Assembly: GCA_016208765.1 (NCBI GenBank)
Contig: JACQXK010000085.1
Span: forward strand, 4,814 to 68,813
From: Candidatus Omnitrophota bacterium
GTDB taxonomy: Bacteria > Omnitrophota > Gorgyraeia > Gygaellales > Profunditerraquicolaceae
DNA length: 64,000 nt
Reading direction: 5' to 3'
Shown: piece by piece, positions 23,937-62,976 of the stretch
Position numbering within the stretch: the first letter of the stretch is position 1
How the letters are laid out: each line of letters opens with the position of its first letter
The notes under the pieces: model-generated
The model's input: the letters and a program-made list of their open reading frames with translations, nothing else
Databases searched by the model: none
Told to the model about the DNA's origin: nothing
Made by a program: the position numbers and the translations under genes

Positions 23937-23942
23937 AAATTC

Positions 23943-24279: not shown

Positions 24280-24294
24280 GTTTAAATATAGCTG

Positions 24295-24355
24295 CCCCAC
24301 ACCAGTTGAAGATAACTTAAGCTAAATTTCTAATTGGTGTGGGGATTTTCTTTTT
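24295..24355 (+). terminator. Putative intrinsic terminator (10-bp stem ccccacacca/tggtgtgggg, long loop, T-run)
   Basis: Inverted repeat 24295-24304 / 24335-24344 followed by ttttcttttt. Confidence 0.4.
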
Positions 24356-24358
24356 ACG

Positions 24359-37179: not shown

Positions 37180-37464
37180 GTGAAAGAAATATTGTTAATT
37201 ATATGCTTGCTTATTGGTGGTTGCCAAACAACCCCATTGGTCAATAAAGAATCACCAGTTAAAGAAAAAAAACCCGCAAGAATAGAAACTATCAGAAACG
37301 TTAAACATGAAAAATTTGACGCACAGGAAGACTTTGAAAAAGGATGGAATAAAGGATATCAAGAGGCCCTTAATGACATGGGAGATTTTGATTTAATAAT
37401 GTGGGAAGGACAGGAATATATTACAGTTAAAGCCTTAAAGGTTAAATATGAAAAACTCCAATGA
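37180..37464 (+). CDS. Small lipoprotein (lipobox LIGGC)
   Basis: MKEILLIICLLIGGCQT. Confidence 0.5.
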   Translation: MKEILLIICLLIGGCQTTPLVNKESPVKEKKPARIETIRNVKHEKFDAQEDFEKGWNKGYQEALNDMGDFDLIMWEGQEYITVKALKVKYEKLQ

Positions 37465-37572: not shown

Positions 37573-37842
37573 ATGAGTTGGATTTTAGTTGCTTTGTCCT
37601 TATTCGGCGTAGTGCTTAATATATATAAAAGAAAGGAGTGTTTCTATATTTGGGGCATAACAAATGCCGGATGGGCCATATATGACTTTATGATAGGCGC
37701 CGTGGCTCAAGGAGCGCTGTTTAGTGTTTACTTTGTGTTGGCTATCTGGGGGATCTGGAAATGGGGTAATGGTAAAGGGTGGATTGAGAAGCTCTGGAAA
37801 CGACATATTTGTGACAAGTATCCTTATGAGGAGGAGATGTGA
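37573..37842 (+). CDS. Small membrane protein (2 TM)
   Basis: Hydrophobic segments; ORF only. Confidence 0.4.
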   Translation: MSWILVALSLFGVVLNIYKRKECFYIWGITNAGWAIYDFMIGAVAQGALFSVYFVLAIWGIWKWGNGKGWIEKLWKRHICDKYPYEEEM

Positions 37843-38230: not shown

Positions 38231-38782
38231 ATGACAATAACTAAAGAATGGCTCAAAGAGAAGTTAGCTTGTAAAGAAGGGGTGGATTGGTTTGTAAATC
38301 AACAAGAAACAGAAGGTATTAAAATTGTTGAAAAGCTTGTTCAGGAGGATAGATTACAATGGGCTAATTGGCTTATTGTAAGGATTATGACTAAAAAGCA
38401 ATATGTTTCTTATGCTGTTTATTCTGCGGAACAAGTAATTGATATTTATGAAAAGAAATACCCAGAGGATAAAAGGCCACGAAACGCTATTGAAGCAGCG
38501 AAGAAATGTATAGAAAACCCAAGCGAAGAAAATAAGAAGGCTGCTGCTTCTGCTGCTACTTCTGCTCATGCTGCTGCTGCTGCTCATGCTGCTTATTCTG
38601 CTTCTGCTGCTTCTGCTGCTTATTCTGCTGCTGCTTCTGCTGCTTCTGCTGCTTATTCTGCTTCTGCTGCTTCTGCTGCTTATTCTGCTGCTGCTGCTTC
38701 TGCTGCTTATTCTGCTGCTGCTTATGTTGCAAGAAAAAACATTTTAGAATATGGGTTAGAATTACTAAGGAGTGTGGAATGA
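38231..38782 (+). CDS. Protein with Ala/Ser/Tyr-rich low-complexity repeat region
   Basis: Structured N-terminal about 95 aa, then AAASAATSAHAAAAAHAAYSASAASAAYS... encoded by GCT-rich repeats. Confidence 0.55.
   Translation: MTITKEWLKEKLACKEGVDWFVNQQETEGIKIVEKLVQEDRLQWANWLIVRIMTKKQYVSYAVYSAEQVIDIYEKKYPEDKRPRNAIEAAKKCIENPSEENKKAAASAATSAHAAAAAHAAYSASAASAAYSAAASAASAAYSASAASAAYSAAAASAAYSAAAYVARKNILEYGLELLRSVE
38527..38730 (+). repeat. GCT-rich imperfect tandem repeat (gctgcttctgctgcttattctgct units)
   Basis: Visible direct repeats within the CDS. Confidence 0.7.
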
Positions 38783-40008: not shown

Positions 40009-40090
40009 ATATATCGTTATTTTAATGACAACAACAGATTTTCTGTTATAAACTTAAATTGAGGGCGACGGCTCTCATAAGTTCCATTAA

Positions 40091-40125
40091 GCCTGTTTCG
40101 TGCGCACACGAGGCGGGCTTTTTTT
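40091..40125 (+). terminator. Intrinsic terminator (short stem-loop, GC-rich, then T7 run)
   Basis: tcgtg-cgca-cacga hairpin 40098-40111, ggcgggc, ttttttt 40119-40125. Confidence 0.5.
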
Positions 40126-40139
40126 ATTAAAATCATTAT

Positions 40140-40583
40140 ATGAAAGACCCTAATAAACATAAACTTACCCACGAAGAACAATATTATGTAAAACTTTGGC
40201 TCGCAGAAGATTGTGGATATTCAGAAGTGCTTTCCCGCCTCAAAGAACAATTTAATAAAGAAGTTATTCCTTGTGCCCTTACATATTACACACATCATTA
40301 CAAAGAAGAAATTCAAAAAATTCGCCATGAAATAAATTCTAATATTCTTAATATTCCAATTGCCAATAAAGAAGTACGATTGCGTAGACGAGAAGAAATT
40401 TATAAAATTTATAAATCAAAGGGTGAATTAGAAAAAGCACGTGCTGTTTTAGATGAAGCCAAGGAAGAAATGGAACCTAAGCAAACAGGTGTCCACGTAG
40501 GAGTGAGGGTTGATAATAGTGATAGACCAAGACGTTCAGAAGAGTGTCTCAATAGAGTTATTGAAGTTCTCGAAAGAAGATAA
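40140..40583 (+). CDS. Putative terminase small subunit
   Basis: 147 aa, directly upstream of large terminase; not recognised by motif. Confidence 0.35.
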   Translation: MKDPNKHKLTHEEQYYVKLWLAEDCGYSEVLSRLKEQFNKEVIPCALTYYTHHYKEEIQKIRHEINSNILNIPIANKEVRLRRREEIYKIYKSKGELEKARAVLDEAKEEMEPKQTGVHVGVRVDNSDRPRRSEECLNRVIEVLERR

Positions 40584-42078
40584 AGAAGAGGCGCTTTGTA
40601 AAGCTAAGGCTGAGCGCGCTGCTTTAAACTCTAATCATTTCTGCGAATTCGTCCTTAAGGATGAAAAAGGTCAGCATATCAATCAGGCTGATATACATCG
40701 GGAAATAAATTGGCACATAGATGAATGCCGCAAAAGAAAACTTAATTGTGGGATATTGGCACCTTTCAGGCATGGAAAGACTGAGCAGGTTGTTATCGCA
40801 CGCACATTGCAATTCTTGGGCGAGAATCAGAATAATAGAGTGTTTATAGTCTGTAACGCCGATGATAATGCCGCGGCTCGCGTTGAATCAATAGGCAAGT
40901 ATATTGACCATGACGAGGATTATCATTCTGTGTTCCCAAATGTCCGGGCCGGTGACAAAACACAATGGGGAAGGCATAAATTAGTTGTTAAAAGAGAGAG
41001 CTTGTCTAAGGATGGTTCTGTTGAGGCTTGGGGTATTACGTCATCAGGAACAGGTGCTGGTTGCGATTTTATGATAATTGATGACCCTGTTGACCTGCGT
41101 AACGCGATACTTAACCCTGCAATGCGGCAACAGGTAAAAGAAGCGTTTAAGAATGTCTGGAGCACGCGTTTAGCTCCTAATGGATTTAAGATTTATATTG
41201 CAACATCGTGGCATGATGACGATTTGACATCTGAGCTTCGTAAGAATTCAGAGTGGTGTTTCTTGGTGATAAAGGTATCTGATGACTTCTCAAAATTTGA
41301 TTGTGAGTCGTCGCTAAAAGGTAAATTCAGCATTCCCTTGTGGGATCAATGGCCAAAAGAGAAACTTATCGCTCGTTGCCGAGAAATAGGCACGCGCGCT
41401 TTTAATAGAGGATATCGGCAGTGCGCTTTGTCTGATGAGGATAGGACATTGCCGCATTATTTGCAGGTGTTTAAGCATGGAGTAAGGGTGAGTGATTTAG
41501 TTAGCCCTACTTGGCCGCGTGTCTGCGGCATGGATCCATTTGGTAAATTTGTTGTCATATTTACTCTTGCTTTGGGCCCTGATGGGAAACGATACCCTGT
41601 TGAGATACGCCGAGGTAAGTGGAATTCTACGGAAGCTGTGATGCAGTTAATAGATGCATATCAAACACATCATCATCAGTTAATTGTGGTGGAGAATAAC
41701 GCATCACAGGATGCGATAATCCAATGGGCTATGGAAAAAGGACAGCAACTTCCAATATGGCCATTTACCACAGGCAAACAGAAAGCGGATCCGGAGAATG
41801 GATTGCCAAGTTTAGATGTTGAGTTTGCAAATAATTCTTGGGTCTGTGCCATGGGAAGTGAACATCAGCCGGATTGCGGATGTGGTTTTTGTGTTTGGAA
41901 AAGAGAGATGTCAGAGCATCCAATAGGAGAGGCAGCTGATACTGTTATGGCTTCGTGGTTTGCGCGTGAGGCGGCAAGGGCATTGACTTTTAGAATAACT
42001 GAGCAACCGATGATTAATGAAGACATTGTAACTATGGAAGATGTTGGCCTTGAGCGCGTGGCCATAGGTGACTATTAA
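40510..42078 (+). CDS. terL: Terminase large subunit (ATPase + nuclease)
   Basis: Walker A-like ILAPFRHGKTE, Walker B MIIDDP; 522 aa; true start uncertain (74-nt overlap with upstream ORF). Confidence 0.75.
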   Translation: MIIVIDQDVQKSVSIELLKFSKEDKEEALCKAKAERAALNSNHFCEFVLKDEKGQHINQADIHREINWHIDECRKRKLNCGILAPFRHGKTEQVVIARTLQFLGENQNNRVFIVCNADDNAAARVESIGKYIDHDEDYHSVFPNVRAGDKTQWGRHKLVVKRESLSKDGSVEAWGITSSGTGAGCDFMIIDDPVDLRNAILNPAMRQQVKEAFKNVWSTRLAPNGFKIYIATSWHDDDLTSELRKNSEWCFLVIKVSDDFSKFDCESSLKGKFSIPLWDQWPKEKLIARCREIGTRAFNRGYRQCALSDEDRTLPHYLQVFKHGVRVSDLVSPTWPRVCGMDPFGKFVVIFTLALGPDGKRYPVEIRRGKWNSTEAVMQLIDAYQTHHHQLIVVENNASQDAIIQWAMEKGQQLPIWPFTTGKQKADPENGLPSLDVEFANNSWVCAMGSEHQPDCGCGFCVWKREMSEHPIGEAADTVMASWFAREAARALTFRITEQPMINEDIVTMEDVGLERVAIGDY

Positions 42079-42089: not shown

Positions 42090-44342
42090 ATGTTTGGATT
42101 AAGCATAGTAAGCAAAAAAGAAATTCAGCAATTAAAGGAAACAGTTACAACATATTCCCGGACACTTGAGGATATTGGCTGGATTAATCTTAGCCTTGAA
42201 AGCAATTCTCAAAATCAATTATTCTCTGAAGGCTTTAAGAAGATGCTTAAGACATGCAAAATTTACTATTACAAGAATCCTCTTGCAGGTCACTGGGTGC
42301 ATTTGACCACTGAGTTTGTGTTTGGTGAAGGTGTTTCGGTTCCAAAGGCTAAGGACAAAAAGATTCAGGAGATAGTAGATAAGTTTTGGAAGGATTCTGA
42401 TAATCAAAGGGCATTAACATCTTTTTCAGCGCAGCATTTGCTTAATAATAAGTTGCAGTATGAGGGCAATTTGTTTTTTGCATTGTTTACCGACGATGAA
42501 GGTAATGTTAGGGTGAGGATATTTAATACTGAGGAAATAGCTGACGTTATAAATGATGCCGATGACAGGATGCGGCCGCGCTTTTATAAGGTTGGAGTAA
42601 GAGACAAGAGATATAATTTTATGTCTGATAGTTATGACATCAGCTTTCAGAAATATATTTATTATCCTGACAAGGATAATTTTAACGTGGAGGATTATAA
42701 CATTCCTGAGGAGAAGATCGGGAAAGGAGCTGTTATATTTCATGTAAAGATAAATTGCGACATAAATGATAAATTTGGGATACCTGAGTTGTATCGCGGA
42801 ATTGACTGGATACGTGCGCATAGGGATATGGCTGGTGATTTAGCAACATTAATAAAATCACTTTCTACATTAGCATGGAAGAAAAAGGTCAAAGGCACTC
42901 CGGCGCAAGTCACCGCATTAAAATCAGCGCTTAATTCTAAGATTGACATGACTAATAGGACGGTGGCCGCAGGATCTGTTCAGTATGAAAACGAGGGTAT
43001 AGATACAGAGCCGATTAATACACCGACAGGCGGCGTTAAGATTGGCACTGATGGGCTTAGGCAAATGAAGCTGATGGTTTGTTCTGCTTCGGGTATATTT
43101 GAGCATTACTTTGGCGATCCTTCTACAGGTAACCTTGCGACAGCAACAAGCATGGAGTTGCCCATGCTTAAAAAGTTTATCATATATCAGAAGTTGTGGG
43201 AGGCAATTATCAATGAGATTCTGCAGTATCAGATAAATCAAAAAATTGACGCGGGATTATTAGAGGGTAGCGTTGATTATGATGAGAAAACAAGCCGAAA
43301 GATTTATGAGACGAGTTTGGATAGGTTAATTGACATAGATTTCCCGCCGATATTAGAGAAAGATTTAAAGGCAATAGGCGAGGCTTTGGATGTGGCAAGA
43401 AGGAATAATTTGATTTCTGATGAGTCAGCGTCACGGATGTTCTTGTTGGCAGCGAATCTTAACAATATTGATGAGGAAATAAAGAAAATAGATTTTACAA
43501 GGCAATTATCTTTTCAAAGCGCAGGGATATTTGGGCAACAGTTACCTAATGGTCAGGATAAGCCAAAAGAGGGGATTCCTAAAAAAGAAGATGCTCCGAT
43601 TAAGGAGGCAATTTATACCCCTAAGCATGAGCCGGGATTAAGATTTGCAAGAAAGACTAATTATGTATTGCAACGCATGAATGGATATCGTAAGGCATTA
43701 GCGACAAGCTTTACTGATTTTAAGAAGAATATAAAGGAATCAACAAAGAGCGCAGGGCCTAAGGGAGTTGTGGTAGGTAATATAGTTGATCTTGATGAAC
43801 ATTTGGCTGGGCTTAAGAAAAGTATGATTAAAGCAGCGGAGAGTTATTTTCCTGTTGCGATTGATATTGGAAAGAAATTTCTGCAGTCACATCTTAAAGA
43901 GCAGAAAGTCAAAGAATCTCTTTTTGAGGCAGCAAATAAGGAAATATCTTTATTGGATGAGAAATTGTCATGGAATGATGAATATGTTTCTACTTCTTTA
44001 ATACCTGATATTAAGAATAAAGTTATGCAAGTTGTTCGCACATCTTATGATAGCGAAGAAGAATTTAATAAGGCAGTTAATGCTGCGATAAATAGTTTTG
44101 AGAGTAGAGTAGAGCAGTACGCCGGGGCATTTTGGCATGTAGAAGAATCGGCGGTAAAGGAAGCTGGTGTTGGCACAGGGTTAAGGGTTAATTTTGTTGG
44201 TGCTGATGATGAGTCAACTTGTGATGGATGTAATAAATCAATGGAAGGAAATCCATATTTAATAGATGAGGCCCCGGAGCCGGGAAGTCATGAGTGTGAT
44301 GGTAGGTGCCGTCACGCATTACAAATTATAGAGGAGGGTTAA
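42090..44342 (+). CDS. Portal protein, probably fused to a minor-head (Mu F-like) domain with C-terminal Cys cluster
   Basis: 750 aa immediately after terL; size and position; CDGCN...HECDGRCRH at C-terminus. Confidence 0.6.
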   Translation: MFGLSIVSKKEIQQLKETVTTYSRTLEDIGWINLSLESNSQNQLFSEGFKKMLKTCKIYYYKNPLAGHWVHLTTEFVFGEGVSVPKAKDKKIQEIVDKFWKDSDNQRALTSFSAQHLLNNKLQYEGNLFFALFTDDEGNVRVRIFNTEEIADVINDADDRMRPRFYKVGVRDKRYNFMSDSYDISFQKYIYYPDKDNFNVEDYNIPEEKIGKGAVIFHVKINCDINDKFGIPELYRGIDWIRAHRDMAGDLATLIKSLSTLAWKKKVKGTPAQVTALKSALNSKIDMTNRTVAAGSVQYENEGIDTEPINTPTGGVKIGTDGLRQMKLMVCSASGIFEHYFGDPSTGNLATATSMELPMLKKFIIYQKLWEAIINEILQYQINQKIDAGLLEGSVDYDEKTSRKIYETSLDRLIDIDFPPILEKDLKAIGEALDVARRNNLISDESASRMFLLAANLNNIDEEIKKIDFTRQLSFQSAGIFGQQLPNGQDKPKEGIPKKEDAPIKEAIYTPKHEPGLRFARKTNYVLQRMNGYRKALATSFTDFKKNIKESTKSAGPKGVVVGNIVDLDEHLAGLKKSMIKAAESYFPVAIDIGKKFLQSHLKEQKVKESLFEAANKEISLLDEKLSWNDEYVSTSLIPDIKNKVMQVVRTSYDSEEEFNKAVNAAINSFESRVEQYAGAFWHVEESAVKEAGVGTGLRVNFVGADDESTCDGCNKSMEGNPYLIDEAPEPGSHECDGRCRHALQIIEEG

Positions 44343-44343: not shown

Positions 44344-44814
44344 ATGAAGAAGTTATTTCTTTTAGTATTAATGATTTTAGGATTATTCGGGGTCGCATTA
44401 GCCGCAGATAATGCAAGGAATATTGGAAGTAACAAGAACATAGATCATGCGGTTATTGTTGCTGATTTAAGTAATGGATATACCCAAAAGGTAAATGCTA
44501 ATGGAACAGCTGTGGCGGCTGAGGATTTAAAGACAATTGCCTTTGTGAATAGCCAATCTGGAGGAGCTGAGTTGGTGTTAACGGGTGGGGCGACAGTTTA
44601 CGGAATTGTAGTTACAGGCACAACGAACAGTGATTGGGTAGCGGTATATGATGCGACATCTGCGACAGGAACGCCTGTTTTAGATGTGGTTACATCGGCT
44701 AATAACCCAACAGCTACGATTCCGATTCCCGGAGGAAGAAAGTTTTCTAATGGTATCTTTGTTGATTTAGGTACATCAACAACACATGCGGAGATTATGT
44801 ATATTCCGGATTAA
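44344..44814 (+). CDS. Secreted Thr/Gly-rich beta-type protein (Sec signal peptide)
   Basis: MKKLFLLVLMILGLFGVALAADN signal peptide. Confidence 0.55.
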   Translation: MKKLFLLVLMILGLFGVALAADNARNIGSNKNIDHAVIVADLSNGYTQKVNANGTAVAAEDLKTIAFVNSQSGGAELVLTGGATVYGIVVTGTTNSDWVAVYDATSATGTPVLDVVTSANNPTATIPIPGGRKFSNGIFVDLGTSTTHAEIMYIPD

Positions 44815-44815
44815 T

Positions 44816-45859
44816 ATGGTTGATAAAGTTATAAAAGCAATACTTTTATTATCACCGATAGTCTATATCAGAAGCGTCGCTATGAATAATTTTGACTTGG
44901 TTATTCTACATATTTCAGCGATGGTTTTATTTGTGGCTACGTTCTTTGATAAGCCTAAGAGGGATTTTGTAGGACAAAAATATATAGTTTATTTGTTGGG
45001 AATTGGATTGTTTAGCGCGGCGATGCATGGGTTTAATTTATTCATCATGGATTACTTAGTCAATGTGTTCCTTGCGGTTGTATGTCTTTATGTCGTTATC
45101 AGGTATTGTCGGGACATTGAAGGGTGTTTTAAATTTATCGTATATGCGGGAATAATTAATATCTTGGTATGGGTGGTTCAGGTGATGGGATTTTCTCCGG
45201 TGATCCCCAATTATAAATACATGGAAACAAATGGAGGAATAATTGGCAACGCGCCAAGACTTTCTATGTATTTAAGCATTATATCACCATTTTTTATCGC
45301 CATGAATAAGATTTGGTGGGTGTTATTAATTCCTATCCCTCTAATTATGCGTGAGGCAAACATCTTAATGGCTTTGTTGTTGTTATTCTTATTAAGTGAT
45401 TTTAGACTTAATTACAAATTATGGGTAATAGCTTTTTTTGCAGGAGCAATGTTTTTATTTCACGATAAGTTAATTAATTCTATTGCGTCAAGAATAACTA
45501 CATACAAAGAGGTTTTGACCGGATTTTTTAATCATCCTGTGAGTGGATATGGATTAGGTATATATCCTTATGGTCAGGAGATGGTTAATACAAAAATAGA
45601 TTATGCAGTTTATAGTAGTTTATTGCAGTTTATTGTTGGAGCGGGGATGTTAAGTATTCCTTTAGTATATGAAACTATTAAACGTTATATTAAGAATTTC
45701 AGCAGGTTTCCAGAAAGCTTATCTTTGGCAATTCTTTTAATGCTTTGTATCGGAGAATATCCTTTAGAGATCAAGAGGCTTTGGATAACTATAATTATGA
45801 TAACTGGATTTTTTGTTATTAGGAGAATTGATGTCGCAAAGCAAAATTGTAACAGTTAA
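44816..45859 (+). CDS. Polytopic membrane protein, Wzy/WaaL (O-antigen polymerase/ligase)-like
   Basis: About 10 hydrophobic helices with a larger loop; family assignment by architecture only. Confidence 0.4.
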   Translation: MVDKVIKAILLLSPIVYIRSVAMNNFDLVILHISAMVLFVATFFDKPKRDFVGQKYIVYLLGIGLFSAAMHGFNLFIMDYLVNVFLAVVCLYVVIRYCRDIEGCFKFIVYAGIINILVWVVQVMGFSPVIPNYKYMETNGGIIGNAPRLSMYLSIISPFFIAMNKIWWVLLIPIPLIMREANILMALLLLFLLSDFRLNYKLWVIAFFAGAMFLFHDKLINSIASRITTYKEVLTGFFNHPVSGYGLGIYPYGQEMVNTKIDYAVYSSLLQFIVGAGMLSIPLVYETIKRYIKNFSRFPESLSLAILLMLCIGEYPLEIKRLWITIIMITGFFVIRRIDVAKQNCNS

Positions 45860-46640
45860 TTTTGGATTAAGCAAGGCTGGTTTATCTACTGTCGGATATA
45901 CGCTTAAGAATTATGACGGAACTACAAAACAGAATAGAAGTACTTCCGGAGTAACGGAAATTGTTGCAAGTACGGGAATATATAGCGCTTCTATTAGTTT
46001 TGACGATGATTGGACGGGTATTGTTGTGTGGGATACTGGAGAGGCAAGTCCGCGATATGCTACAGAAACTTATAATATTAATGATTTAGGCGGCGGTGGA
46101 TATGCGGTTATTGCTTCTGATGTCTGGACACAGAAGGAAAAAGAAGATTTGATTGATAAGGTTAATAAGATTTACGAAGGACAGAAAAAGAAAACAAAAT
46201 CTATGCAAGAGGCGTTAGAAGAAAGTAATCGCAAGATAGCTGATGTTAATAATGCTGTATCTTTGTTAAACGAAGTTATAAGAGGTAAAGACGCGAAGTT
46301 TCAAGACATTAAGGAATGCGTGAGTAAGTTAGATAAGCAGTTTAGTGGTGCAATTGAAGCATTAAACAAATCAAGCCTTTTGTCTAATGTCAAGTTGACT
46401 AAAGAGGTTAAAGATAAATTTGAGGCATTAAAAGAGACAGTGTCGTCGGTAAAAAATAGCGTGGACACTCAGGGCATAATTAAGTTAGTTGGTTTGTTAA
46501 GTGAGTCAGTAAATAATATTTCCGATGAAATAGATTTGACAGTAAGGATAGCAACAAAGCTTATAACGACGGAAGATTTGGAGCAGGTTTTAAAGGAGGG
46601 TGGAATCAATGTCCCATCAGGTATTAATAAAAGAGCTTGA
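45831..46640 (+). CDS. Hypothetical head-module protein (coiled-coil C-terminus)
   Basis: ORF, aggaga RBS. Confidence 0.45.
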   Translation: MSQSKIVTVNFGLSKAGLSTVGYTLKNYDGTTKQNRSTSGVTEIVASTGIYSASISFDDDWTGIVVWDTGEASPRYATETYNINDLGGGGYAVIASDVWTQKEKEDLIDKVNKIYEGQKKKTKSMQEALEESNRKIADVNNAVSLLNEVIRGKDAKFQDIKECVSKLDKQFSGAIEALNKSSLLSNVKLTKEVKDKFEALKETVSSVKNSVDTQGIIKLVGLLSESVNNISDEIDLTVRIATKLITTEDLEQVLKEGGINVPSGINKRA

Positions 46641-48255
46641 GAATAGGATTAAGAATAAAGCTGAGAGTTTGCAGAAACAGCTTCGTGAAGCAGCAAAAGA
46701 AGCTGAGATTTATGTAGATAGCAAAGAATCAGCAACAAATAATTCTTTTTCTAAGACACTACTTACTGAGCTATCAAACGACATAGATTTAATATTAACC
46801 AAAGCAAGGGAAGGGCTTAAAGGCCGCAATGGTTCTCCGGCTGTCAGGCATTTCCTTCGGGAGGTAAAAGACAAAGTGAAGAAAATGATTGCAGGTATCA
46901 AGGAGGTAGAAGTCAAAACAATTGCTGAGTCAATTGTAAATAAGATTGAAGAAGCGGAGAAAACAGGAAGTTTTAGCGATATTGAATCACAGGTGCGCGC
47001 GGCAATAAAAAGTAATCCATTGTTTCCTGAGAAAATTGGCGAACGATATGCTGACGGGCCGTATGTCAGAGATATGTACCCGGATAGAGTTGTTATCAGT
47101 TACGAAGGGAAACTTTTTGAGATGGAGTATTCAATAATGAAAGAGGCGGTTATATTAGGCACGCCAAAAGAGGTAATTGAAAAATATGTTCCAGTTACTG
47201 AGGCCTCAAAAGATAAAGTTGAGGTAAAAGAGACGGCAAGAATTGAAGTGTTAAGGGAATCGCAGACACAGGATTTTGAGGTTTCTGGATTCGTTAGCCT
47301 TAAGGAGGCCAAATTTAATTCAGATTTTAGTGAGGTTGAAGTTGTGCTTATAGAGGCAGGATGTAATGAGCAGAAAAAGAGATATTATCCGGATAAAACT
47401 ATTAAAGAAGCCGCATCTATTTTTACAGGATGGAAGATGTATATAAATCATCCTACGGCTACAGAGGAGAAAGAAAGGCCGGAGAGAAATCTCAAGGATT
47501 GGGCATCTACGATTGTTGAGTCAAGGTATGACAACGGCATGGCTATCGGTAAGGTTGCCATACATGATTCTTGGCTTCGTGAGAGGCTTGCGGATCCGGT
47601 TGCAAGGCAGCATATAGGTTTGTCAATAAACACAGGAGGGAAAATATCCGTCGGACGCGTTAACGGCAAAGACGGTTATCAAATAGTTGAAGCGATTATA
47701 CCTGCACGGAAAAACGGCCCGCCATCGGTGGATTGGGTGACAGAAGCCGGAGCAAGGGGACGCGTAAACAAATTACTGGAGAGTAGAAGAGGAGGAGTAA
47801 AAATGGAATTAGAAATGGCAACAATGAAAGATTTAAAGGAAACAAGGTCTGATTTGGTTGAGGCTGTTACCAAAGAAATTCAGGCTGGCAACAGTGAGAA
47901 AGTGACAAAGCTTGAAAAAGACCTTAAGGAAGCACAGGATAAAATTGCGTCTTTTGATAAGACAGACAAGATTAATAAACAGGTTGAGTTGGTTGAGTCT
48001 ATCTTAAAGGACAAAAAGATTCCTGCTGTTTCCAAAGAGAGAATAATTGGGCAGGTAAAAGCTGCGGTTATTGATGGTGATATCAAAGAATCTATTACCA
48101 AATTGATTGAAGCAGAGCTTGAGTATGTGAACAAGCTCAGCCCAAAAGGAAAAATCAAGTTGTCAGAATCAAAGGATACCGATATCAAAGAATCGCTTCA
48201 AAACCAACTTGATAAACGAGCTGGAGTTGAAGAAAAGAAAGAAGAAAAGGAATAA
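46609..48255 (+). CDS. Putative scaffolding/head maturation protein (coiled-coil rich)
   Basis: 551 aa, K/E-rich coiled coils, positioned before decoration/capsid genes; aaggaggg RBS before ATG 46609. Confidence 0.45.
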   Translation: MSHQVLIKELENRIKNKAESLQKQLREAAKEAEIYVDSKESATNNSFSKTLLTELSNDIDLILTKAREGLKGRNGSPAVRHFLREVKDKVKKMIAGIKEVEVKTIAESIVNKIEEAEKTGSFSDIESQVRAAIKSNPLFPEKIGERYADGPYVRDMYPDRVVISYEGKLFEMEYSIMKEAVILGTPKEVIEKYVPVTEASKDKVEVKETARIEVLRESQTQDFEVSGFVSLKEAKFNSDFSEVEVVLIEAGCNEQKKRYYPDKTIKEAASIFTGWKMYINHPTATEEKERPERNLKDWASTIVESRYDNGMAIGKVAIHDSWLRERLADPVARQHIGLSINTGGKISVGRVNGKDGYQIVEAIIPARKNGPPSVDWVTEAGARGRVNKLLESRRGGVKMELEMATMKDLKETRSDLVEAVTKEIQAGNSEKVTKLEKDLKEAQDKIASFDKTDKINKQVELVESILKDKKIPAVSKERIIGQVKAAVIDGDIKESITKLIEAELEYVNKLSPKGKIKLSESKDTDIKESLQNQLDKRAGVEEKKEEKE

Positions 48256-48698: not shown

Positions 48699-49688
48699 AT
48701 GCGTAAGAGTTTATTAGGGATGTATCACGATTTAAAGGAATCCGCAAGCACAAGCGATTTTCCTTATCTCTTGGGTAATACCATGTATAAGAAATTGCTT
48801 GGGCGCTTTAACGGGTTTCCGTCTCCTTGGAGACAATATACAATGCTCGGCGATCTGGCTGATTTCAAGGCTCACGACAGAATTATTTTGTCTGAGGCTC
48901 CTGATCTGGATGAGATTGAGGAGAATGGTAATTACAAAGAGGCAAAATTTTCAGATGCAAAATATTCCATTCAGGCAAAAACCTTCGGGAAAACTTTTTC
49001 CGTTGGCCGCACCGCGATAATCAATGACGACCTGCATGGAATTATGCAAATGCCTCAGATGTTTGGCCGCGCAACAGTAAGGACAATGGTTAAGAGGATT
49101 CTTGGTTTATTGTCCGGTAATGCGAATGCCTACGACGGCAGTGCAATTTTTGCTTTACGTACAGCAACGACTCGCAACTATACTGCGAATGTTTCTTTAG
49201 CGAATACAGCTGCCGGCATGGCCGCGATTTCTGCTTGTATGCAGAGAATTCGTTCTCAGGTAGAGCCAAGCTCAGGAGAGTTAATGGGATTAACCCCTAA
49301 GTATTTGTTAACTGGTACAACGCTTGCTCCAGTTGCACAGCAGTTAATCAAATCGGCACAGATATTGCCGGTGAGCACAAATGGTGGTGGTACTTACAAT
49401 GTCATCGGGACGCTTACTCCTATTGAGGATCCGTTAATTGACATTGTTTTAAGTTCTTCTTGGTGGGCTGTTTTAGCAGATCCACAGGATTGTCCGGTTA
49501 TTGAGGTAGGGTTCTTAAATGGCAAGGCTGAGCCCGATTTACTGGTTTCCAAGGCTGAAATGGTCAGCATGGCCGGTGGTTCTGAAGATCCTTATGGATA
49601 TGAGTTTGATGATATTCACTACAAAGTGCGTCACGATTGGGCAGCACAGTTAGGATATTATCAAGGTATCTGCAGGGGTAGTTCGTAA
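48699..49688 (+). CDS. Putative major capsid protein
   Basis: 329 aa, strong RBS aggagg, position in head module. Confidence 0.5.
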   Translation: MRKSLLGMYHDLKESASTSDFPYLLGNTMYKKLLGRFNGFPSPWRQYTMLGDLADFKAHDRIILSEAPDLDEIEENGNYKEAKFSDAKYSIQAKTFGKTFSVGRTAIINDDLHGIMQMPQMFGRATVRTMVKRILGLLSGNANAYDGSAIFALRTATTRNYTANVSLANTAAGMAAISACMQRIRSQVEPSSGELMGLTPKYLLTGTTLAPVAQQLIKSAQILPVSTNGGGTYNVIGTLTPIEDPLIDIVLSSSWWAVLADPQDCPVIEVGFLNGKAEPDLLVSKAEMVSMAGGSEDPYGYEFDDIHYKVRHDWAAQLGYYQGICRGSS

Positions 49689-49742: not shown

Positions 49743-50120
49743 ATGGCATTTACATTTGACCCGACGACTAATTTAGGAAAAGTAAGATTTCTAATAGGTG
49801 ATATGACGGATTCCGGGCATGTTTTTGAGGACGCCACGATAAATGCGGCCATATCGTTTACATCAAGCGATTTATATGCAGCAGCAGCATTATGTCTTTA
49901 TAGTTTATCTGCATCAAAGGCATTACTTGCTAAGAGAAAAGCAGCGGGGAAGTATTCAGAAGATTTGACAGCGATAGCAAAGGAATGCAGGGAGACAGCA
50001 AAGGCTTACGAAGAGAAATCAAGAAGTATTCCATCAGAAGCACAGGCAGAGCAGTTCCTTACCGATTTTAATTATAACCAGATTTTACAAAATAAAGCAT
50101 TAAGAGATGAGTCCGATTAA
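49743..50120 (+). CDS. Head-tail connector (gp6-like) candidate
   Basis: MAFTFDPTTNLGKVRFLIGDMTD N-terminus reminiscent of head-tail adaptor proteins. Confidence 0.35.
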   Translation: MAFTFDPTTNLGKVRFLIGDMTDSGHVFEDATINAAISFTSSDLYAAAALCLYSLSASKALLAKRKAAGKYSEDLTAIAKECRETAKAYEEKSRSIPSEAQAEQFLTDFNYNQILQNKALRDESD

Positions 50121-50613
50121 ATGGAAGCAGCATTATTGGCATACAGTTTCTTGTGCGCGTGAGCGTATCAACGAGATTGTGCGTAGGGCCCAAGGCGCAA
50201 AGAACGTGCTTGATGCAGGATGCAATGAGGGGTTCTTATCTCAGGCCTTAAAGGAATCAGGATTAAAAGTTACCAGTATTGATATAGAAGATAAAGAGAT
50301 ATTAAAAGCAAAAGAAATATTTGGTATTGATGCAGTAAAGGCGGATATAAATAAGTTACCTTTTTCCGACGGAGAGTTTGACTTGGTTATAGGCGGGGAA
50401 GTGTTAGAGCATTTAGTTAATCCGGGGAAAGGATTATCTGAGTTGTTTAGGGTATCAAGTGACAGAGTAATAATATCGCTTCCTATTGGTGAATATTGGC
50501 TCGGGTGTTCTGAGCATTTGTGGCAAATAGATACTACGGTTATAGAGCATGATCAGGGAATAAAAGAAGAGCTGATTAAAAAAATACTTGTTATGGAGTT
50601 TAAGAAAAGATGA
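50107..50613 (+). CDS. Class I SAM-dependent methyltransferase
   Basis: Motif I VLDAGCNEG, motif II FDLVIGGEVLEHL. Confidence 0.7.
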   Translation: MSPIKWKQHYWHTVSCARERINEIVRRAQGAKNVLDAGCNEGFLSQALKESGLKVTSIDIEDKEILKAKEIFGIDAVKADINKLPFSDGEFDLVIGGEVLEHLVNPGKGLSELFRVSSDRVIISLPIGEYWLGCSEHLWQIDTTVIEHDQGIKEELIKKILVMEFKKR

Positions 50614-51521
50614 AGATAGCAATTTTATCTTGCGCACATACCGGTAATTTTGGAGATGACATTATTTTTGAGGGAGTGCTTAGAATATTATCAGCAATGT
50701 TTCCTAAGGGTGGAAAAGTTAGTCATTTCTTGAGAATTAACAAGGGAAATATTGACGAGATAAATAAGCACGATTTGCTGGTTATTGGCGGAGGAGAATT
50801 ATTATCTAATTCAGATATTCTTGAACAGATAACAAGCAATGAAATAAATATACCATATATGTTTTTGTGTGTAGGCATAGGAAGAGAAGAGGATATAAAA
50901 CCATATCTTCATAAGATTAAGCCGTTGTTTTGGTCTGTTAGGTCTTATGAAGGAGTGAATATTGTTAAAAGGCTTGGCATAGAAAACGTATGTTTTCAAG
51001 ATGATCCGATATTCTGGTGTTTGACTGATAAAAAAGAAAAAAATAATTCAATAGCTGTTTGCTTAAAAGCGATACATAAAAATAATGAGTGGATAAATGA
51101 ATTTGTAATAGAGTTAGATAAAATAATCTCAGACGGAGTTAAGGTTTCATTAGTAGCTTTAGGTAATAAAGAAAGGAATAAAATAAATTACTGTGGAGAG
51201 GAAATATTTATCTCAGATTGCAACGATTATACTTTGGCGCACCAGATAAATATATTACTTAAGAATAGCATCCCAGTTATTTGCTACAAAGATAATCCTA
51301 TTGAGTTTTTAAATATATTAGCTTCTTTTAAAGGGATTGTTTCTGAAAGGCTGCATGGGGCATTAGCAGCATATCATGCCGGGATTGATTTTAAGTCTAT
51401 TCCCTATCACAACAAAGTAAATAAATTTTTGAACACATATTCAATTCAAGATAAGGCCATTGGAGATAATCCTAAAGATATCTGTTACGCGATAAAAAGT
51501 TTATGGAGAGAGGCCCGCTGA
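50610..51521 (+). CDS. Polysaccharide pyruvyl-transferase-like protein
   Basis: N-terminal AHTGNFGDDIIFEGVL motif characteristic of PS_pyruv_trans (CsaB/WcaK) family. Confidence 0.45.
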   Translation: MKIAILSCAHTGNFGDDIIFEGVLRILSAMFPKGGKVSHFLRINKGNIDEINKHDLLVIGGGELLSNSDILEQITSNEINIPYMFLCVGIGREEDIKPYLHKIKPLFWSVRSYEGVNIVKRLGIENVCFQDDPIFWCLTDKKEKNNSIAVCLKAIHKNNEWINEFVIELDKIISDGVKVSLVALGNKERNKINYCGEEIFISDCNDYTLAHQINILLKNSIPVICYKDNPIEFLNILASFKGIVSERLHGALAAYHAGIDFKSIPYHNKVNKFLNTYSIQDKAIGDNPKDICYAIKSLWREAR

Positions 51522-51539
51522 GGCCCAGAAAGGAATAGT

Positions 51540-52541
51540 ATGAATATAATTCATGAATTGAATCAGTTGAATTATGGTGGAGTTGAAAAAGTGATTAGAA
51601 ATATTATTAAATACGACAAAGAGAATAATCATCAAATTGTGGCATATAAAGACGGCCCGTTTAAAAAAGAATTTGAGAAAATAGGCGCGAGAGTGGTGTT
51701 TCTACCAAAAGAAGGAACGGTTGATTTTGATGCAGATGTGATACATGTTCATTCGGGTGGCGGTATAAGCGAAATGGCGAAAATATTAGGCAGGAATTTT
51801 CCTGTTGTAGAGACAATTCATTCTCCTGTTCGTTCACCAATGACAAATGAATTTATATCGCAGAGAGTAGGTGTTACTGAGGCTGTTTGTCGGATGAATT
51901 CAAATTGCATTACGATTTATAACGGACTTGATTTGGATACATTAGAGCCGGATAGATATCCTGAGGATGTAAAAAAAGAACTTGGGATTCCTGATGGCGT
52001 TCCTATTGTGGGGAGGCTTGGACGTATAGGTAAAGATAAATGTTTAGAAGAGTGGATTTTAGCTTGTTACTATTTGCAACAGCAGGGTGTAAATTTTATT
52101 CCTTTAATCGTAGGCGGTGAAGCAGCAGGGCTTGACGGCTATGTCGGAAAATTGAAGCTGATGGCGGCATCACTGCCGGTTAAAGGAATTATTTGGGCCG
52201 GTCATCGCGCGGACGTGGCAAATTATTTACAGATAATGGATGTTTTTCTTTATCCTTCTCCGACTGAGGGCTTTGGGCTTGTTTTTGCCGAGGCAATGTA
52301 TTCCGGTTCGGTCGTGGTTACATATAAAAACGATATCTCAATGGAAGTTGCAGGCGGATATTCGGTGCTTACCGAGAAGAGTATTAAAGGTTTAGTTGAT
52401 GGAGTTAAGAAAGCTTTAGATATCAACATAAGAGACAATATTGTTCCAATGGCTCATGACTTTGTAGCAGAGATGTTTAACGCTGAGAGAATGACAAGTG
52501 AATATCAGGAAGTTTATAAGAGGGTAGTTAGATTAAGATGA
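51540..52541 (+). CDS. Glycosyltransferase family 4
   Basis: GGVEKV N-terminus; C-terminal PSPTEGFGLVFAEAMYSGSVVV (E-x7-E) motif. Confidence 0.7.
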   Translation: MNIIHELNQLNYGGVEKVIRNIIKYDKENNHQIVAYKDGPFKKEFEKIGARVVFLPKEGTVDFDADVIHVHSGGGISEMAKILGRNFPVVETIHSPVRSPMTNEFISQRVGVTEAVCRMNSNCITIYNGLDLDTLEPDRYPEDVKKELGIPDGVPIVGRLGRIGKDKCLEEWILACYYLQQQGVNFIPLIVGGEAAGLDGYVGKLKLMAASLPVKGIIWAGHRADVANYLQIMDVFLYPSPTEGFGLVFAEAMYSGSVVVTYKNDISMEVAGGYSVLTEKSIKGLVDGVKKALDINIRDNIVPMAHDFVAEMFNAERMTSEYQEVYKRVVRLR

Positions 52542-53128
52542 GTGAGTTTACAGATATCTTAACCGCGGTTGTAAATATAAAAAGATTTACTCCTTATCTT
52601 TTAGACAATATAAATGTGGCAGCGTCTTTGTCAGCAAATAGGCAACCTGAGAAATCCTGCCGGCTTGCATTGGAAATTGACGGATGCACGGTGTCAACTG
52701 GATTGGTTACAGTTTCAGGAAACACGATTGAGACTTTCTCATTTACAAACAATGGTTTTAAGGTAGGGATAAAAGATTTTACAAGTGTATCGTCAATTCT
52801 TGTCTCGGGGATATCTAATGGTTTTATTCAGGTTAAGGCAGTCAGTAAAACAGGACAACCGGTGAATCAGGAGAAAGATATTTATAATTCTCTTGCGGTA
52901 AGATTTGAAGCATTAGAGGGAAGTATAAGAATGATGGCTCCGGGCGAGCAGAAAAAAGCAGAATATAAAATGTATGCGGCGCCTGACAAAATTTTACAAG
53001 AGAATGATTTGGTTTATGCTGTTTCCGGGATAGTAGGAATTACTGTTGGTTTAATATCTTTTGTGGATACACTTATGGATTTTGATGGCGCAACAGATCA
53101 TATAGAGTGTGAAATAATGACGCCTTAG
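52538..53128 (+). CDS. Hypothetical protein inside glycosylation island
   Basis: ORF only. Confidence 0.4.
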   Translation: MSEFTDILTAVVNIKRFTPYLLDNINVAASLSANRQPEKSCRLALEIDGCTVSTGLVTVSGNTIETFSFTNNGFKVGIKDFTSVSSILVSGISNGFIQVKAVSKTGQPVNQEKDIYNSLAVRFEALEGSIRMMAPGEQKKAEYKMYAAPDKILQENDLVYAVSGIVGITVGLISFVDTLMDFDGATDHIECEIMTP

Positions 53129-53148
53129 AGGCGCAAAAAGGAGAGGGA

Positions 53149-55545
53149 ATGAAATATTCTATAATCATTGCAACACATAACGGATTAGAGCATACATCAA
53201 GATGTTTAACAAGCATATTTAATTGTTCAAAAGATTTTGAGCTTATTGTTGTTGATAATGGCTCAACCGACGGGACTAAAGGTTATTTGCAGGAATTAAA
53301 AGCGCGTAATGAAAATGTCAAAGTGATTTCTAATCCTGAAAATACTACTTTTTCAATCGCTAATAATCAGGGATTAAAGATAGCTGAAGGTGAGTATATT
53401 GTTTTTTTAAATAACGATACCGTGGTTTGTAATGAATGGCTTGAAAGATTGAATGCTCATTTACATAAAATTCCATTAAAGAATCTGGGTATTGTTGGGC
53501 CGGTAACAAATAACTCTAATGGTAAACAATGTGTTGGAACGCAGGATCCGGAAGTATGGCATCAAGAAAATAAGGGTAGATGGGCGCATGCAGGCAGGCT
53601 TTATGGATGGTGCATGATGATGCGTAAGAGTTTACTTGATGAAATTGGTGGTTTTGATGAAAGATTTATCAACTCTCATGAGGATAATGATTTATGCCTC
53701 AGGGCGCAGTTAGCCGGATATAAGCTTGCTATTGCCTACGATACTTATATACATCATACCGGTCAAGGGACACTAAGGAAAGTGTTTGATAATCAGGGGT
53801 ATTTGGATAATGGGTATAAGAATCGTGAGCTTTATTATGATAAATGGTATAGCGATAAATTGAAAAAATTAGTTGCAGTTTACAGGACAAATGGTGGGAA
53901 GTGGTTAGAAGAATCGTTAAGACAGACTTCTAAGTTTGCTGATTCAATATTGATACATTTTTGCCGCGCGCCACAAGATTTTGAGATGGATGTTACGTTT
54001 ACTGGAAACTTTGAAGGGAAAGGAAAATACTATCCTAAACGCGATGAATATATAAAACTTCTTAAACAAAAATTTCCTAAAGTAATCTGGACAGAATTCT
54101 ATGACGGTATCTTTCAGGAAGATTACGAACGTGGCCGGCTGTTAGAATTAGCCCTGGAAATGCATGCAAAAGGTGAGGCTGATTGGTGTATTTCTGTTGA
54201 TGATGATGAAATATACGAAGATAAATTTATAGAGAAGGTTCAGAAAATGATGTCACCGCGTAATCCTGAGATATTCGGTTATTGGTGTAACTGGCGTACG
54301 ATATGGGATAGGCGCGGAAAAGATGAGTATTATAGGACTGATTCCACCTTTGGTCAGTTTAGTAATTATCGGTTCTTTAAACTCATGAAGAATCAGGAGA
54401 TTAATTCTCATGGACACCCGGAAGGGCATCATTGTGGATCTGCTCCTCTTATGGCTGAGGAGAATTTGGCATGGTCAAACATTAGGGTAAAACACATGGG
54501 TTATGATACTCATGAGCAGAGGCAAAGAAAATATGAATTTTACGAGGCAAACGATCATTTTAAAGATGCGCGCGACATCGGTAATAAAGATTATTCTCAT
54601 TTGATAGATGTGAATGTTTCTCTTGAGAAATATCGTCAGGATAATGGCATCAGTTTAATCATGATGGTTAAAAATGAAGAAAAGCATATTTTAACATGTC
54701 TTGAGTCAGTTGCTCCGGTTATAGATGAGTTTGTGATTGTGGATACAGGATCAACAGACAAAACAGTTGAAATTGTGGAAAAATTCTCTAAATATTCTGC
54801 AGCGCCGGTTAAGATCTTTCATTCTCCTTGGGTTGATAATTATTCTATTCCAAGGAATTACGGAAAATTTCATGCTACAAAGCAGTGGATTTTAATGTTA
54901 GACGCTGATGAGAGGTTTAGTTATGAAGATTTAAGAAAAATTCATCAAATGAGCGAAACAGAAGCAGATGCAGTGATATTCCATGTAATTAATTATTTAA
55001 AAGCTCCCCTTTTTGGTCAAAAGCCGGTTTATGCTTCTACAGAATCGGTGAGGATGTATAGAAATAAGCCTGAGTTGTTTTATTCGGGGGTAATTCACGA
55101 AACAATTGATGATGCTATTTGCGCGATGACTAATAAGCAAGGATTAAAGGTGGCGCGTTCTCCGGTTGTATTACATCACTATGGATATCTTAAAGAGAAG
55201 AGAAAAGTTAACGATAAGCTTAATTATTACGAGATGCTCAACAACAAGCAAATTGAAGTAACAGAGGGAAAGGATCCGCGGCCGTATTTTAATCTTGCGC
55301 TGCATTATCTTAATGATGATAAAAAGCAGGAAGCCTTGAGGTGTTTCCAGAAAGCATTGGAGATAAATCCTAATTTTTGGCACGCAAATCAGCAAATGGC
55401 GGCGTTAAATATTCAAAGCGCCAAGGAATTTTTGACGAGAACAATTGATTCAATACCTGAACAGCATCCATTTAAGAAACAAGCGGTGACATTACTTGAG
55501 TATTTGAACAGCAATTCTTTTGGATATACAAAGGTGGGGGTTTAG
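53149..55545 (+). CDS. Tandem double GT2 glycosyltransferase with C-terminal TPR
   Basis: Two GT-A cores: IIIATHNG...VVDNGSTDGT...NNDT and LIMMVKNEE...VDTGSTDKT; C-terminal TPR-like NLALHYLNDDKKQEALRCFQKALEINPN. Confidence 0.7.
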   Translation: MKYSIIIATHNGLEHTSRCLTSIFNCSKDFELIVVDNGSTDGTKGYLQELKARNENVKVISNPENTTFSIANNQGLKIAEGEYIVFLNNDTVVCNEWLERLNAHLHKIPLKNLGIVGPVTNNSNGKQCVGTQDPEVWHQENKGRWAHAGRLYGWCMMMRKSLLDEIGGFDERFINSHEDNDLCLRAQLAGYKLAIAYDTYIHHTGQGTLRKVFDNQGYLDNGYKNRELYYDKWYSDKLKKLVAVYRTNGGKWLEESLRQTSKFADSILIHFCRAPQDFEMDVTFTGNFEGKGKYYPKRDEYIKLLKQKFPKVIWTEFYDGIFQEDYERGRLLELALEMHAKGEADWCISVDDDEIYEDKFIEKVQKMMSPRNPEIFGYWCNWRTIWDRRGKDEYYRTDSTFGQFSNYRFFKLMKNQEINSHGHPEGHHCGSAPLMAEENLAWSNIRVKHMGYDTHEQRQRKYEFYEANDHFKDARDIGNKDYSHLIDVNVSLEKYRQDNGISLIMMVKNEEKHILTCLESVAPVIDEFVIVDTGSTDKTVEIVEKFSKYSAAPVKIFHSPWVDNYSIPRNYGKFHATKQWILMLDADERFSYEDLRKIHQMSETEADAVIFHVINYLKAPLFGQKPVYASTESVRMYRNKPELFYSGVIHETIDDAICAMTNKQGLKVARSPVVLHHYGYLKEKRKVNDKLNYYEMLNNKQIEVTEGKDPRPYFNLALHYLNDDKKQEALRCFQKALEINPNFWHANQQMAALNIQSAKEFLTRTIDSIPEQHPFKKQAVTLLEYLNSNSFGYTKVGV

Positions 55546-62052: not shown

Positions 62053-62053
62053 C

Positions 62054-62974: not shown

Positions 62975-62976
62975 CT

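Follow-up and report, generated by a model that had tools for sequence, protein, structure and literature searches.

A conserved pair of phage genes for an exported jelly-roll protein and a divergent Wzy_C-superfamily membrane protein within the head operon of an Omnitrophota prophage

What would a secreted protein and a polytopic membrane protein do among the head genes of a prophage? The question was raised by two adjacent genes, referred to here as A and B, in a 64,000-nucleotide stretch of DNA from a Candidatus Omnitrophota bacterium (contig JACQXK010000085.1; the whole stretch is called the window). A preliminary description of the sequence had placed the pair between the portal and scaffold genes and had called it atypical for a head module; both points were borne out, with the start of B revised to position 44816. 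A homologues were found in 45 fetched loci and B homologues in 36, at 24 to 65% identity and with conserved motifs, and A and B are therefore real genes and not chance open reading frames (ORFs). The analysis described below indicates that the two form a cassette in which an exported jelly-roll protein is encoded directly ahead of a membrane protein of the Wzy_C superfamily. The reading that we favour, and hold tentatively at a little short of even confidence, is that the pair carries out a polymerase- or ligase-type remodelling of the surface glycan, resulting in receptor masking and reduced re-adsorption, with A as a lectin-like partner of B.

Sequence and predicted structure of A and B

Gene A (44344-44814, plus strand, 156 amino acids) starts 1 nucleotide past the portal stop codon and is preceded by a GAGGAGG ribosome-binding site. 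The N-terminus of the protein, MKKLFLLVLMILGLFGVALA followed by ADNA, has a positive n-region, a 16-residue h-region and an A-L-A cleavage motif. The n-h-c arrangement of a Sec signal peptide cut by signal peptidase I (SPase I), with small residues at -3 and -1, was present as MKK-LFLLVLMILGLFGVAL-A ahead of AD, and the predicted signal peptide covers residues 1-20 (nucleotides 44344-44403), with cleavage between ALA and AD. The M[KR][KR] start, the hydrophobic core and the AxA-type site were kept in all 35 distinct A homologues, and the only Protein Data Bank (PDB) sequence reached by the A profile was that of periplasmic cytochrome b562, in its signal peptide and cleavage site. As read from the sequence, A thus carries a genuine, canonical Sec/SPase I signal peptide.

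Past the predicted cleavage site, residues 21-74 form a variable N-terminal region of low model confidence and residues from approximately 75 to 156 form a conserved jelly-roll core. The AlphaFold2 (AF2) model of A was an all-beta jelly roll with a predicted local distance difference test score (pLDDT) of 77.5 overall and approximately 90 over residues 80-156, and the earlier claim of a Sec-secreted beta-type protein therefore stands. When the model was compared with the PDB by Foldseek, the matches were generic jelly rolls, namely satellite tobacco mosaic virus coat protein, nucleoplasmin, Ena pilins, the KHP40 cement protein and folds like that of tumour necrosis factor. In BFVD, 140 viral proteins matched A at E<=1e-3, many of them uncultured-phage proteins of 90-125 amino acids. 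The top match was a 94-amino-acid protein of an uncultured Caudovirales phage (TMt 0.87, root-mean-square deviation 1.3, E 6e-8), and other matches were domains in larger proteins, one of them an annotated minor tail protein. No PHROG match was found for A itself at E<=0.01, and several A homologues gave weak matches to phrog_28102, which is of unknown function. The signal peptide, taken together with the jelly-roll matches to small uncultured-phage proteins, indicates that A belongs to a common kind of small phage jelly-roll domain and has gained an export signal. Between two strands of the core lies a conserved exposed loop, Y-D-A-x-[ST]-A-T-G-T-P.

A structural match of A that has no signal peptide, and that has a GRKF-x-NGI motif in common with it, was ORF22 of Ralstonia phage RSK1 (L020, AB863625; region 22306-24633). 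This gene lies after the lysis genes, beside a 479-amino-acid fibre-like protein and a putative polysaccharide deacetylase. The comparison of A with RSK1 ORF22 by hhalign was not significant, despite the Foldseek match and the common motif.

Gene B (44816-45859, plus strand, 347 amino acids) encodes a polytopic protein predicted to lie in the inner membrane. The mechanical ORF of B starts at 44786; the real start was placed at the ATG at 44816, 1 nucleotide past the A stop codon, because the NCBI model (HY761_09985, hypothetical protein) has 347 amino acids and all homologues begin with MVDK or MVT. No PHROG match at E<=0.01 and no PADLOC match of substance was found for B alone. Neither A nor B matched a PHROG structural or holin family, so that the classification which the preliminary description had named as grounds for rejecting its view was not obtained. 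Six relatives of B at 31-36% identity were found in a word-indexed search, one of them with a precomputed Wzy_C match. In a profile search of 1.84 billion cluster representatives, 119 matches were found at E<=1e-30 (these being clusters at 50% identity), 344 at E<=1e-10 and 1833 at E<=1e-3, with lengths of mostly 330-365 amino acids. For the study of conservation, 82 sequences with 20-42% identity were aligned. Pfam Wzy_C (PF04932) was matched by 30 of these 82 relatives, the best at 2.1e-10, and the sole NCBIfam match in the family was IctB, in 3 of the 82. The one solved structure matched by the family profile was WaaL of Cupriavidus metallidurans bound to undecaprenyl pyrophosphate (Und-PP) (7TPG; E 3.3e-8, profile positions 57-285). 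A comparison of the B profile with the single E. coli WaaL sequence by hhalign gave no significant similarity.

These findings place B in the Wzy_C or O-antigen-ligase-like superfamily, an assignment made from family-level sequence evidence and not from B's own Pfam score. Because B does not have the catalytic His of WaaL and PglL, it is best described as a divergent member of the superfamily (WaaL/Wzy/PglL; GT-C_B type) and not as a canonical ligase, so that the earlier label of Wzy/WaaL-like held for the superfamily and failed for the canonical enzyme. The B clade is distinct, has no class in Pfam, PHROGs or NCBIfam, and has so far been found only in phage contexts.

The AF2 model of B (mean pLDDT 95, predicted template modelling score 0.93) was all-helical with approximately 11-12 membrane helices. 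The 10-helix membrane protein of the preliminary description was thus right in being polytopic and slightly low in the helix count. The nearest PDB fold found by Foldseek was FtsW, a GT-C_B enzyme, in a weak match (TM-score 0.47, E 0.37), and WaaL was not retrieved in this search of the PDB. The content of Lys and Arg was 22% in the proposed cytoplasmic loops, compared to 6% in the periplasmic ones (positive-inside count), which supports a modelled topology with R226, the GGxxGN loop and the EYPxE loop on the periplasmic side. B thus appears as a polytopic protein within the range of 10-13 transmembrane helices and with conserved residues on a periplasmic loop. Its C-terminus consists of 27 residues past the last periplasmic loop, which form a membrane helix and a short basic tail.

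When the family profile was aligned with 7TPG, R226 of B (nucleotides 45491-45493), conserved in 82 of 82 sequences, fell on WaaL Arg265, and G244, G246 and G277 were each conserved in 81-82 of the 82. Conservation was 90% for R49, 83% for R148 (on the periplasmic loop before position 179), 88% for E314, 93% for Y315, 85% for E318 and 98% for R or K at position 321. WaaL holds the Und-PP phosphates with Arg191 and Arg265 and uses His313 to activate the acceptor; in related polymerase families Asp or Glu replaces this His, and in GT127 a Glu is found in another loop (PMC10920833). WaaL Arg191 fell in an insertion relative to the B profile, and the adjacent B position 179 was K, P or H in the family and R in the window protein. 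Judging from the alignment, R148 could stand in for the second phosphate-binding Arg. The proposed periplasmic catalytic elements are R226, the G244-x-G246-x-G248 loop, R148 and the E314-Y-P-x-E318-x-x-R321-x-W323 loop.

The loss of the canonical His, together with IctB as the only NCBIfam match, would also agree with a non-glycan envelope function, in which B is a dead or repurposed Wzy_C fold (compare IctB-like proteins) and A is a periplasmic effector, the pair serving in superinfection exclusion, lysis timing or outer-membrane disruption. Envelope-directed genes do gather in the head modules of these phages, among them a gene for a prepilin-peptidase-like protein and genes for further signal-peptide proteins, both described below. 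However, the Arg that would bind Und-PP and the periplasmic Gly, Glu and Tyr motifs are absolutely or nearly absolutely conserved over 82 sequences that are only 20-42% identical, which argues for a retained active site, and no PADLOC defence match and no holin or lysis PHROG match was obtained. A non-glycan function is therefore considered improbable.

Linkage and distribution of the pair

A was located directly 5' of B in all 36 loci that carried B, with a gap of 1-56 nucleotides; these loci represent 25 distinct pairs. Among the IMG/VR loci found with B, A was upstream in 10 of 10. The B homologues from collections that were not preselected as viral (Logan, JGI and ENA) all lay in phage structural modules with an A homologue directly 5', and in that set the A homologues were confirmed for L001 and L004. 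The pairwise distances of A and B correlated with r 0.51, and with a partial r of 0.38 when the capsid protein was controlled, a weak mirror-tree signal of co-evolution. No A or B relatives were found in 185,579 GTDB species genomes, and no description of such a pair was found in the literature. In one locus (L054, 4863-5645), two tandem A paralogues were found ahead of B.

The strict A-then-B order and the tight spacing in 36 of 36 loci raise the possibility of a dedicated O-glycosylation pair, in which B is an O-oligosaccharyltransferase-like enzyme that moves an Und-PP-linked glycan en bloc onto Ser or Thr of A. In the pairs PilA-TfpO/PilO and ComP-PglS, and in PglL, the transferase is likewise a member of the Wzy_C superfamily with an exported acceptor-like gene directly 5'. 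We take it that in pilA-tfpO (pilO) and comP-pglS the acceptor gene stands immediately 5' of the Wzy_C-family transferase gene, an order that A and B would mirror. A is exported, has a conserved exposed loop with Ser or Thr, and persists without B in a few phages, like pilins without TfpO, and the distances of A and B correlate beyond the capsid phylogeny. PglS and PglL moreover have a WaaL-like site in which a Glu downstream of the His matters (E404 in PglL, E379 in PglS), and B has the conserved E314 past its catalytic loop. In contrast, the catalytic His that is needed in PglL, PglS (H324) and WaaL is absent from B, and B, with 347 amino acids, has no large C-terminal periplasmic domain as is found in PglS. 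A also departs from type IV pilins, which have a class III signal, in being a Sec/SPase I jelly-roll protein. The Ser/Thr loop is not conserved in the A homologues of L006, L007, L013 and L022 and is kept in P0158, where B is missing, and the mirror-tree signal is weak. On this evidence a dedicated O-glycosylation pair is regarded as rather doubtful.

The window phage was compared with its lineage relatives, which have portal proteins of 50-64% identity and capsid proteins of 50-74% identity. In L023, L025 and L029, the portal gene was followed by the scaffold/protease-like gene with nothing between. In L028, only ORF C, the gene that follows B in the window, was found between them. In L021 the site was occupied by a class-I methyltransferase gene (8396-9043), and in L027 by genes for three other signal-peptide proteins (5145-8550) and then ORF C. 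The three proteins of L027 were a 697-amino-acid fibre-like protein with GNVGIGTTTP repeats, a 159-amino-acid protein and a 287-amino-acid Laminin_G_3 protein. A different A and B pair, followed by a class-I methyltransferase gene (5848-6477), was found in L022. A and B were absent from L021, L023, L025, L028 and L029. These findings show that the portal/scaffold junction of the window lineage is a cargo hot spot and that the pair behaves there as an accessory insert, with presence and absence at a fixed site as is seen for moron or accessory cargo genes.

The window B had only 27% identity to the B of its lineage-mate L022, whereas the L022 B was 45-48% identical to those of L007 and L047; the cassette was therefore acquired at least twice at the portal/scaffold site. 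The window B was closer to its counterparts in phages that combine an SU10-type portal with a Phage_capsid_3 capsid protein (32-36% identity) than to the L022 B, which indicates that the cassette moves between phage lineages.

Phages that have this combination of portal and capsid protein form a separate lineage, with contigs of approximately 41-43 kb. Here A followed the capsid gene at almost every locus with room for it and was then followed by B in 18, and only L058 and L062 lacked both genes. Because the pair is near-universal beside the capsid gene in this lineage, it is unlike a sporadic seroconversion moron. The moron status that the preliminary description had proposed to examine by prophage comparison was thus upheld by the presence and absence of the pair in the window lineage and not by its distribution in the Phage_capsid_3 lineage. 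We take the lambda genes lom and bor and the Cor/Llp-type exclusion proteins to be phage morons with signal-peptide proteins in late operons, and they resemble A and B in this respect. The likeness extends to an exported protein inside a structural block and to presence or absence at a fixed junction in the window lineage; the pair differs from such morons in that neither a promoter nor a terminator was detected for it alone and in that it is near-universal in the Phage_capsid_3 lineage.

That A comes immediately behind the major capsid gene at almost all loci of that lineage speaks for a virion-linked role. A would then derive from a small jelly-roll structural or decoration-type protein and end on particles, for instance by binding capsids after lysis and possibly after modification by B, or A and B would tether head assembly to the membrane. 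The fold matches of A to uncultured-phage proteins of 90-125 amino acids, to minor tail protein domains and to the KHP40 cement protein agree with such an origin, as does the signal-less relative in phage RSK1 beside a fibre-like gene. These matches are generic for jelly rolls, however, and the one to RSK1 ORF22 had no significant counterpart in hhalign. The conserved, cleavable Sec signal would take A to the far side of the membrane, away from where capsids are assembled and DNA is packaged, the window phage has a cement protein of its own (PF09956), and no A-like domain was found in the other structural genes of the window. A virion-linked role is thus very improbable.

A new type of phage protein glycosylation, for which we see a slim chance, would combine elements of the above. 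A His-less B with a Wzy_C fold and a Glu/Tyr loop would glycosylate A as its acceptor, yielding a late glycoprotein that coats the envelope or lysis-released capsids, and the retention of the pair beside the capsid gene across a phage lineage would follow from such a coat.

In most members of the Phage_capsid_3 lineage, a polytopic prepilin-peptidase-like (Peptidase_A24) protein of approximately 130 amino acids was encoded between the portal and scaffold genes (L001 6719-7114, L004 6726-7121, L016 4864-5259 and approximately 25 further loci within L031-L053). Both catalytic Asp motifs, D-x4-IPN and GGGDVKL, were intact. This gene fills the slot expected for the prohead protease, and the window has no such gene. 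A was considered as a type IV prepilin cut by this peptidase, and this was rejected because the N-termini of A homologues are of the Sec/AxA type and the window and other loci are without the peptidase.

Proposed action at the cell envelope

In the remodelling reading favoured here, A and B would make up a mobile cassette of two late-operon genes whose target is the envelope of the host cell and not the capsid. B would be an inner-membrane GT-C_B enzyme with its active site facing the periplasm. The invariant R226, probably with help from R148, would serve to bind an Und-PP-linked glycan, which B would pass to an acceptor, with the conserved acidic loop (E314/E318), and not a WaaL-type His, as the likely activating group. 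A would be co-translated with B, exported by Sec and cut by signal peptidase I, and in the periplasm it would cooperate with B as a lectin-like jelly-roll protein. The net effect would most likely be a remodelled surface glycan on the infected diderm cell, obtained by polymerising or ligating a repeat that is altered or specified by the phage, and the remodelled glycan would mask receptors against superinfection and against re-adsorption by progeny. We infer from the combined evidence that B acts on the periplasmic side, transferring an Und-PP-linked glycan there, and that A works with it; the suggested donor, acceptor, role of A and biological pay-off are likewise deduced.

The closest characterised relative is WaaL (CAZy GT121; 7TPG/7TPJ), which resembles B in being a polytopic GT-C_B-type protein with a periplasmic active loop, in the aligned R-x3-W-...-P-L-x-G-x-G-x-G motif, and in the fall of R226 on Arg265. 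The two differ in length (347 amino acids in B, 413 in WaaL) and at the position of His313, where B proteins have F, Y or L. B is also phage-encoded, in a head operon and always found with an exported partner gene. By analogy with WaaL, B may transfer O-antigen to lipid A-core, and the host has LpxD, LpxI and BamA. The missing His and the small size of B weigh against both the WaaL and the O-oligosaccharyltransferase readings and fit Wzy-like polymerases better, since those use Arg and an acidic residue.

Phage Wzy/WaaL-like enzymes are known as lysogenic-conversion morons that alter the O-antigen. Wzy-beta of Pseudomonas phage D3 (with Iap and Oac) and the related Wzy_C proteins of phi297 and VarioGold have in common with the pair a phage-borne membrane enzyme of the Wzy_C superfamily and small envelope-directed partner genes; in VarioGold, a gene for a signal-peptide protein adjoins the Wzy_C gene. 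A receptor-masking rationale would fit both the D3-type polymerases and A/B. However, no sequence similarity of D3 Wzy-beta to B was detected (tblastn; profile approximately -5 bits). In D3, the tail-fibre and lysis genes flank iap, oac and wzy-beta, which are near attP/int, and two of these three are antisense to the late genes, whereas A and B are co-oriented and translationally coupled in the head module. A is a soluble jelly roll of 130 amino acids and D3 Iap a hydrophobic inhibitor of 31. Because A and B have no promoter of their own and lie in a late operon, and the D3 units are separate and partly antisense, classical lysogenic seroconversion is unlikely. The D3 Wzy-beta-type seroconversion put forward at first is thus made unlikely by the sequence comparison, by the gene layout, by the missing promoter and by the near-universal presence of the pair in a second lineage. 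Its alternative, a periplasmic step of virion-protein glycosylation, is topologically awkward. The broader interpretation of the pair as a surface-glycan polymerase or ligase is partly supported.

Several findings count against a remodelling of the surface glycan. The B sequence alone had no Pfam or NCBIfam match, and the B profile did not score E. coli WaaL or D3 Wzy-beta in hmmsearch (D3 -5.2 bits). Position 266 of B, which is aligned to the catalytic His313 of WaaL, was F (34 sequences), Y (11), L (7) or another residue, with no conserved His, Asp or Glu. No promoter or terminator of the cassette's own was found above chance, and the cassette sits in the late operon. The window ORFs that were examined included no flippase and no initiating phosphoglycosyl transferase. 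A was found without B in L016/L017, L030 and L064, and because of this occurrence in L016, L030 and L064 it must have some function independent of B. An envelope role also leaves unexplained why the pair should follow the capsid gene so nearly universally in the Phage_capsid_3 lineage, and no cultured phage with A or B was found by tblastn in 50,697 phage genomes. The acceptor-like gene order and the conservation beside the capsid gene are what keep the rival readings alive.

The structural operon of the window includes a cytoplasmic glycan-enzyme block (50107-55545, plus strand), which lies between the head-tail connector and neck genes. From Pfam matches, this block encodes an S-adenosylmethionine-dependent methyltransferase, a polysaccharide pyruvyl transferase, a GT4 glycosyltransferase, a 196-amino-acid unknown protein and a 798-amino-acid protein with two GT2 domains and tetratricopeptide repeats (TPRs). 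Homologues of the methyltransferase, pyruvyl transferase, GT4 and 196-amino-acid proteins were kept in L023 and L029, both of which lack A and B. A GT4 homologue was found after the connector or capsid gene in L028, without A and B, and in L026, also without them and with the portal/scaffold junction unresolved. Since L023 and L029 keep the block genes without A and B, the pair and the block are not obligatorily coupled, and the earlier notion that the downstream glycosylation genes form one linked module with the pair was not supported. The block is a possible, non-obligatory supplier of the donor glycan of B, and its TPR-bearing GT2 protein could glycosylate proteins directly. Glycan enzymes recurred in cassette-bearing phages, as a 710-amino-acid GT2-TPR protein in L004 (1-1686) and as a sulfotransferase and a GT2 protein in L011 (10066-14019).

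Phage-borne Wzy_C enzymes are themselves known; what is new is this phage-borne clade, its constant exported partner and its setting in head operons. The pair has become part of head-morphogenesis operons in two uncultured phage lineages that are not related to each other, and one of these resides in Omnitrophota. Should late surface-glycan remodelling be true, the pair would be a widespread device for exclusion or against re-adsorption in uncultivated phage-host systems; should B glycosylate A, the two genes would make up a compact O-glycosylation system that might be of use in biotechnology. In both cases, a recurrent pair of dark-matter genes is given a testable function and can serve as a marker for a large group of phages of approximately 42 kb.

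Prophage setting and neighbouring genes

The window from position 1 to approximately 25.1 kb is host chromosome, with tRNA-Gln at 10555-10628, the genes for BamA (16991-19381), Skp, LpxD and LpxI, and a radical S-adenosylmethionine gene. The outer-membrane and lipid A genes (BamA, Skp, LpxD and LpxI) are clustered at 16991-23936, and from their presence on the flanking chromosome the host is taken to be a diderm, lipid-A-making member of the Omnitrophota. The prophage starts with an integrase gene on the minus strand (25194-26207), and a CI-like S24/helix-turn-helix repressor gene is found at 27386-28015, also on the minus strand. The succession of host chromosome, integrase and CI-like repressor, and structural genes indicates a siphovirus-type prophage in a metagenome-assembled genome of the Omnitrophota.

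The head module begins with the TerL gene (40510-42078). The portal gene (42090-44342, plus strand; phrog_10963, 2.1e-52) is the upstream boundary of the A/B insertion site. Downstream of the pair is ORF C (45831-46640, plus strand), which encodes 269 amino acids from the ATG at 45831, with a beta N-domain and a coiled coil. ORF C has an AGGAG ribosome-binding site and overlaps the 3' end of B by 29 nucleotides. It was placed outside the cassette because its homologues occupy the portal/scaffold gap of L027 and L028 without A or B. The scaffold/protease-like head protein gene (46600-48255, plus strand, 551 amino acids; phrog_29592, 1.2e-13), whose product is 49-72% identical in relatives, is followed by the cement protein gene (PF09956) and then by the major capsid protein gene (48699-49688; PF25209, 2e-39). 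The genes after the capsid gene were, in order, the connector, the glycan-enzyme block, Neck1, an immunoglobulin-domain tail protein, the tape measure, Dit and an Mtd-like receptor-binding protein. Two ideas on these neighbours were rejected. A, ORF C and the 697-amino-acid secreted fibre of L027 were considered as relatives of the cement protein, and no similarity was found. A signal peptide on the major capsid protein was also considered, and its N-terminus proved to be an amphipathic helix.

The sole strong terminator was found at 40089-40120, 5' of the late operon. Promoter-like sites within the operon numbered 40, compared to 52.6 expected from shuffled sequence, and thus showed no excess. 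Gaps of 1 nucleotide, which leave no room for a promoter, separate A and B from their neighbours.

Just 5' of the late operon, an ORF of 183 amino acids (38231-38782) contains a long Ala/Ser/Tyr low-complexity repeat (...SAASAAYSAAASAASAAY...). Further upstream, an ORF of 94 amino acids (37180-37464) has a lipoprotein-type signal (LIGGC) and one of 89 amino acids (37573-37842) has one predicted hydrophobic membrane segment; these two are candidates for spanin and holin components or for an exclusion lipoprotein. No template or variable repeat of a diversity-generating retroelement was found by the Mtd-like gene in 61500-64000, and this candidate was dropped. The receptor-binding-type protein itself (62054-62974) carries the Mtd second domain (PF21916, 5e-11).

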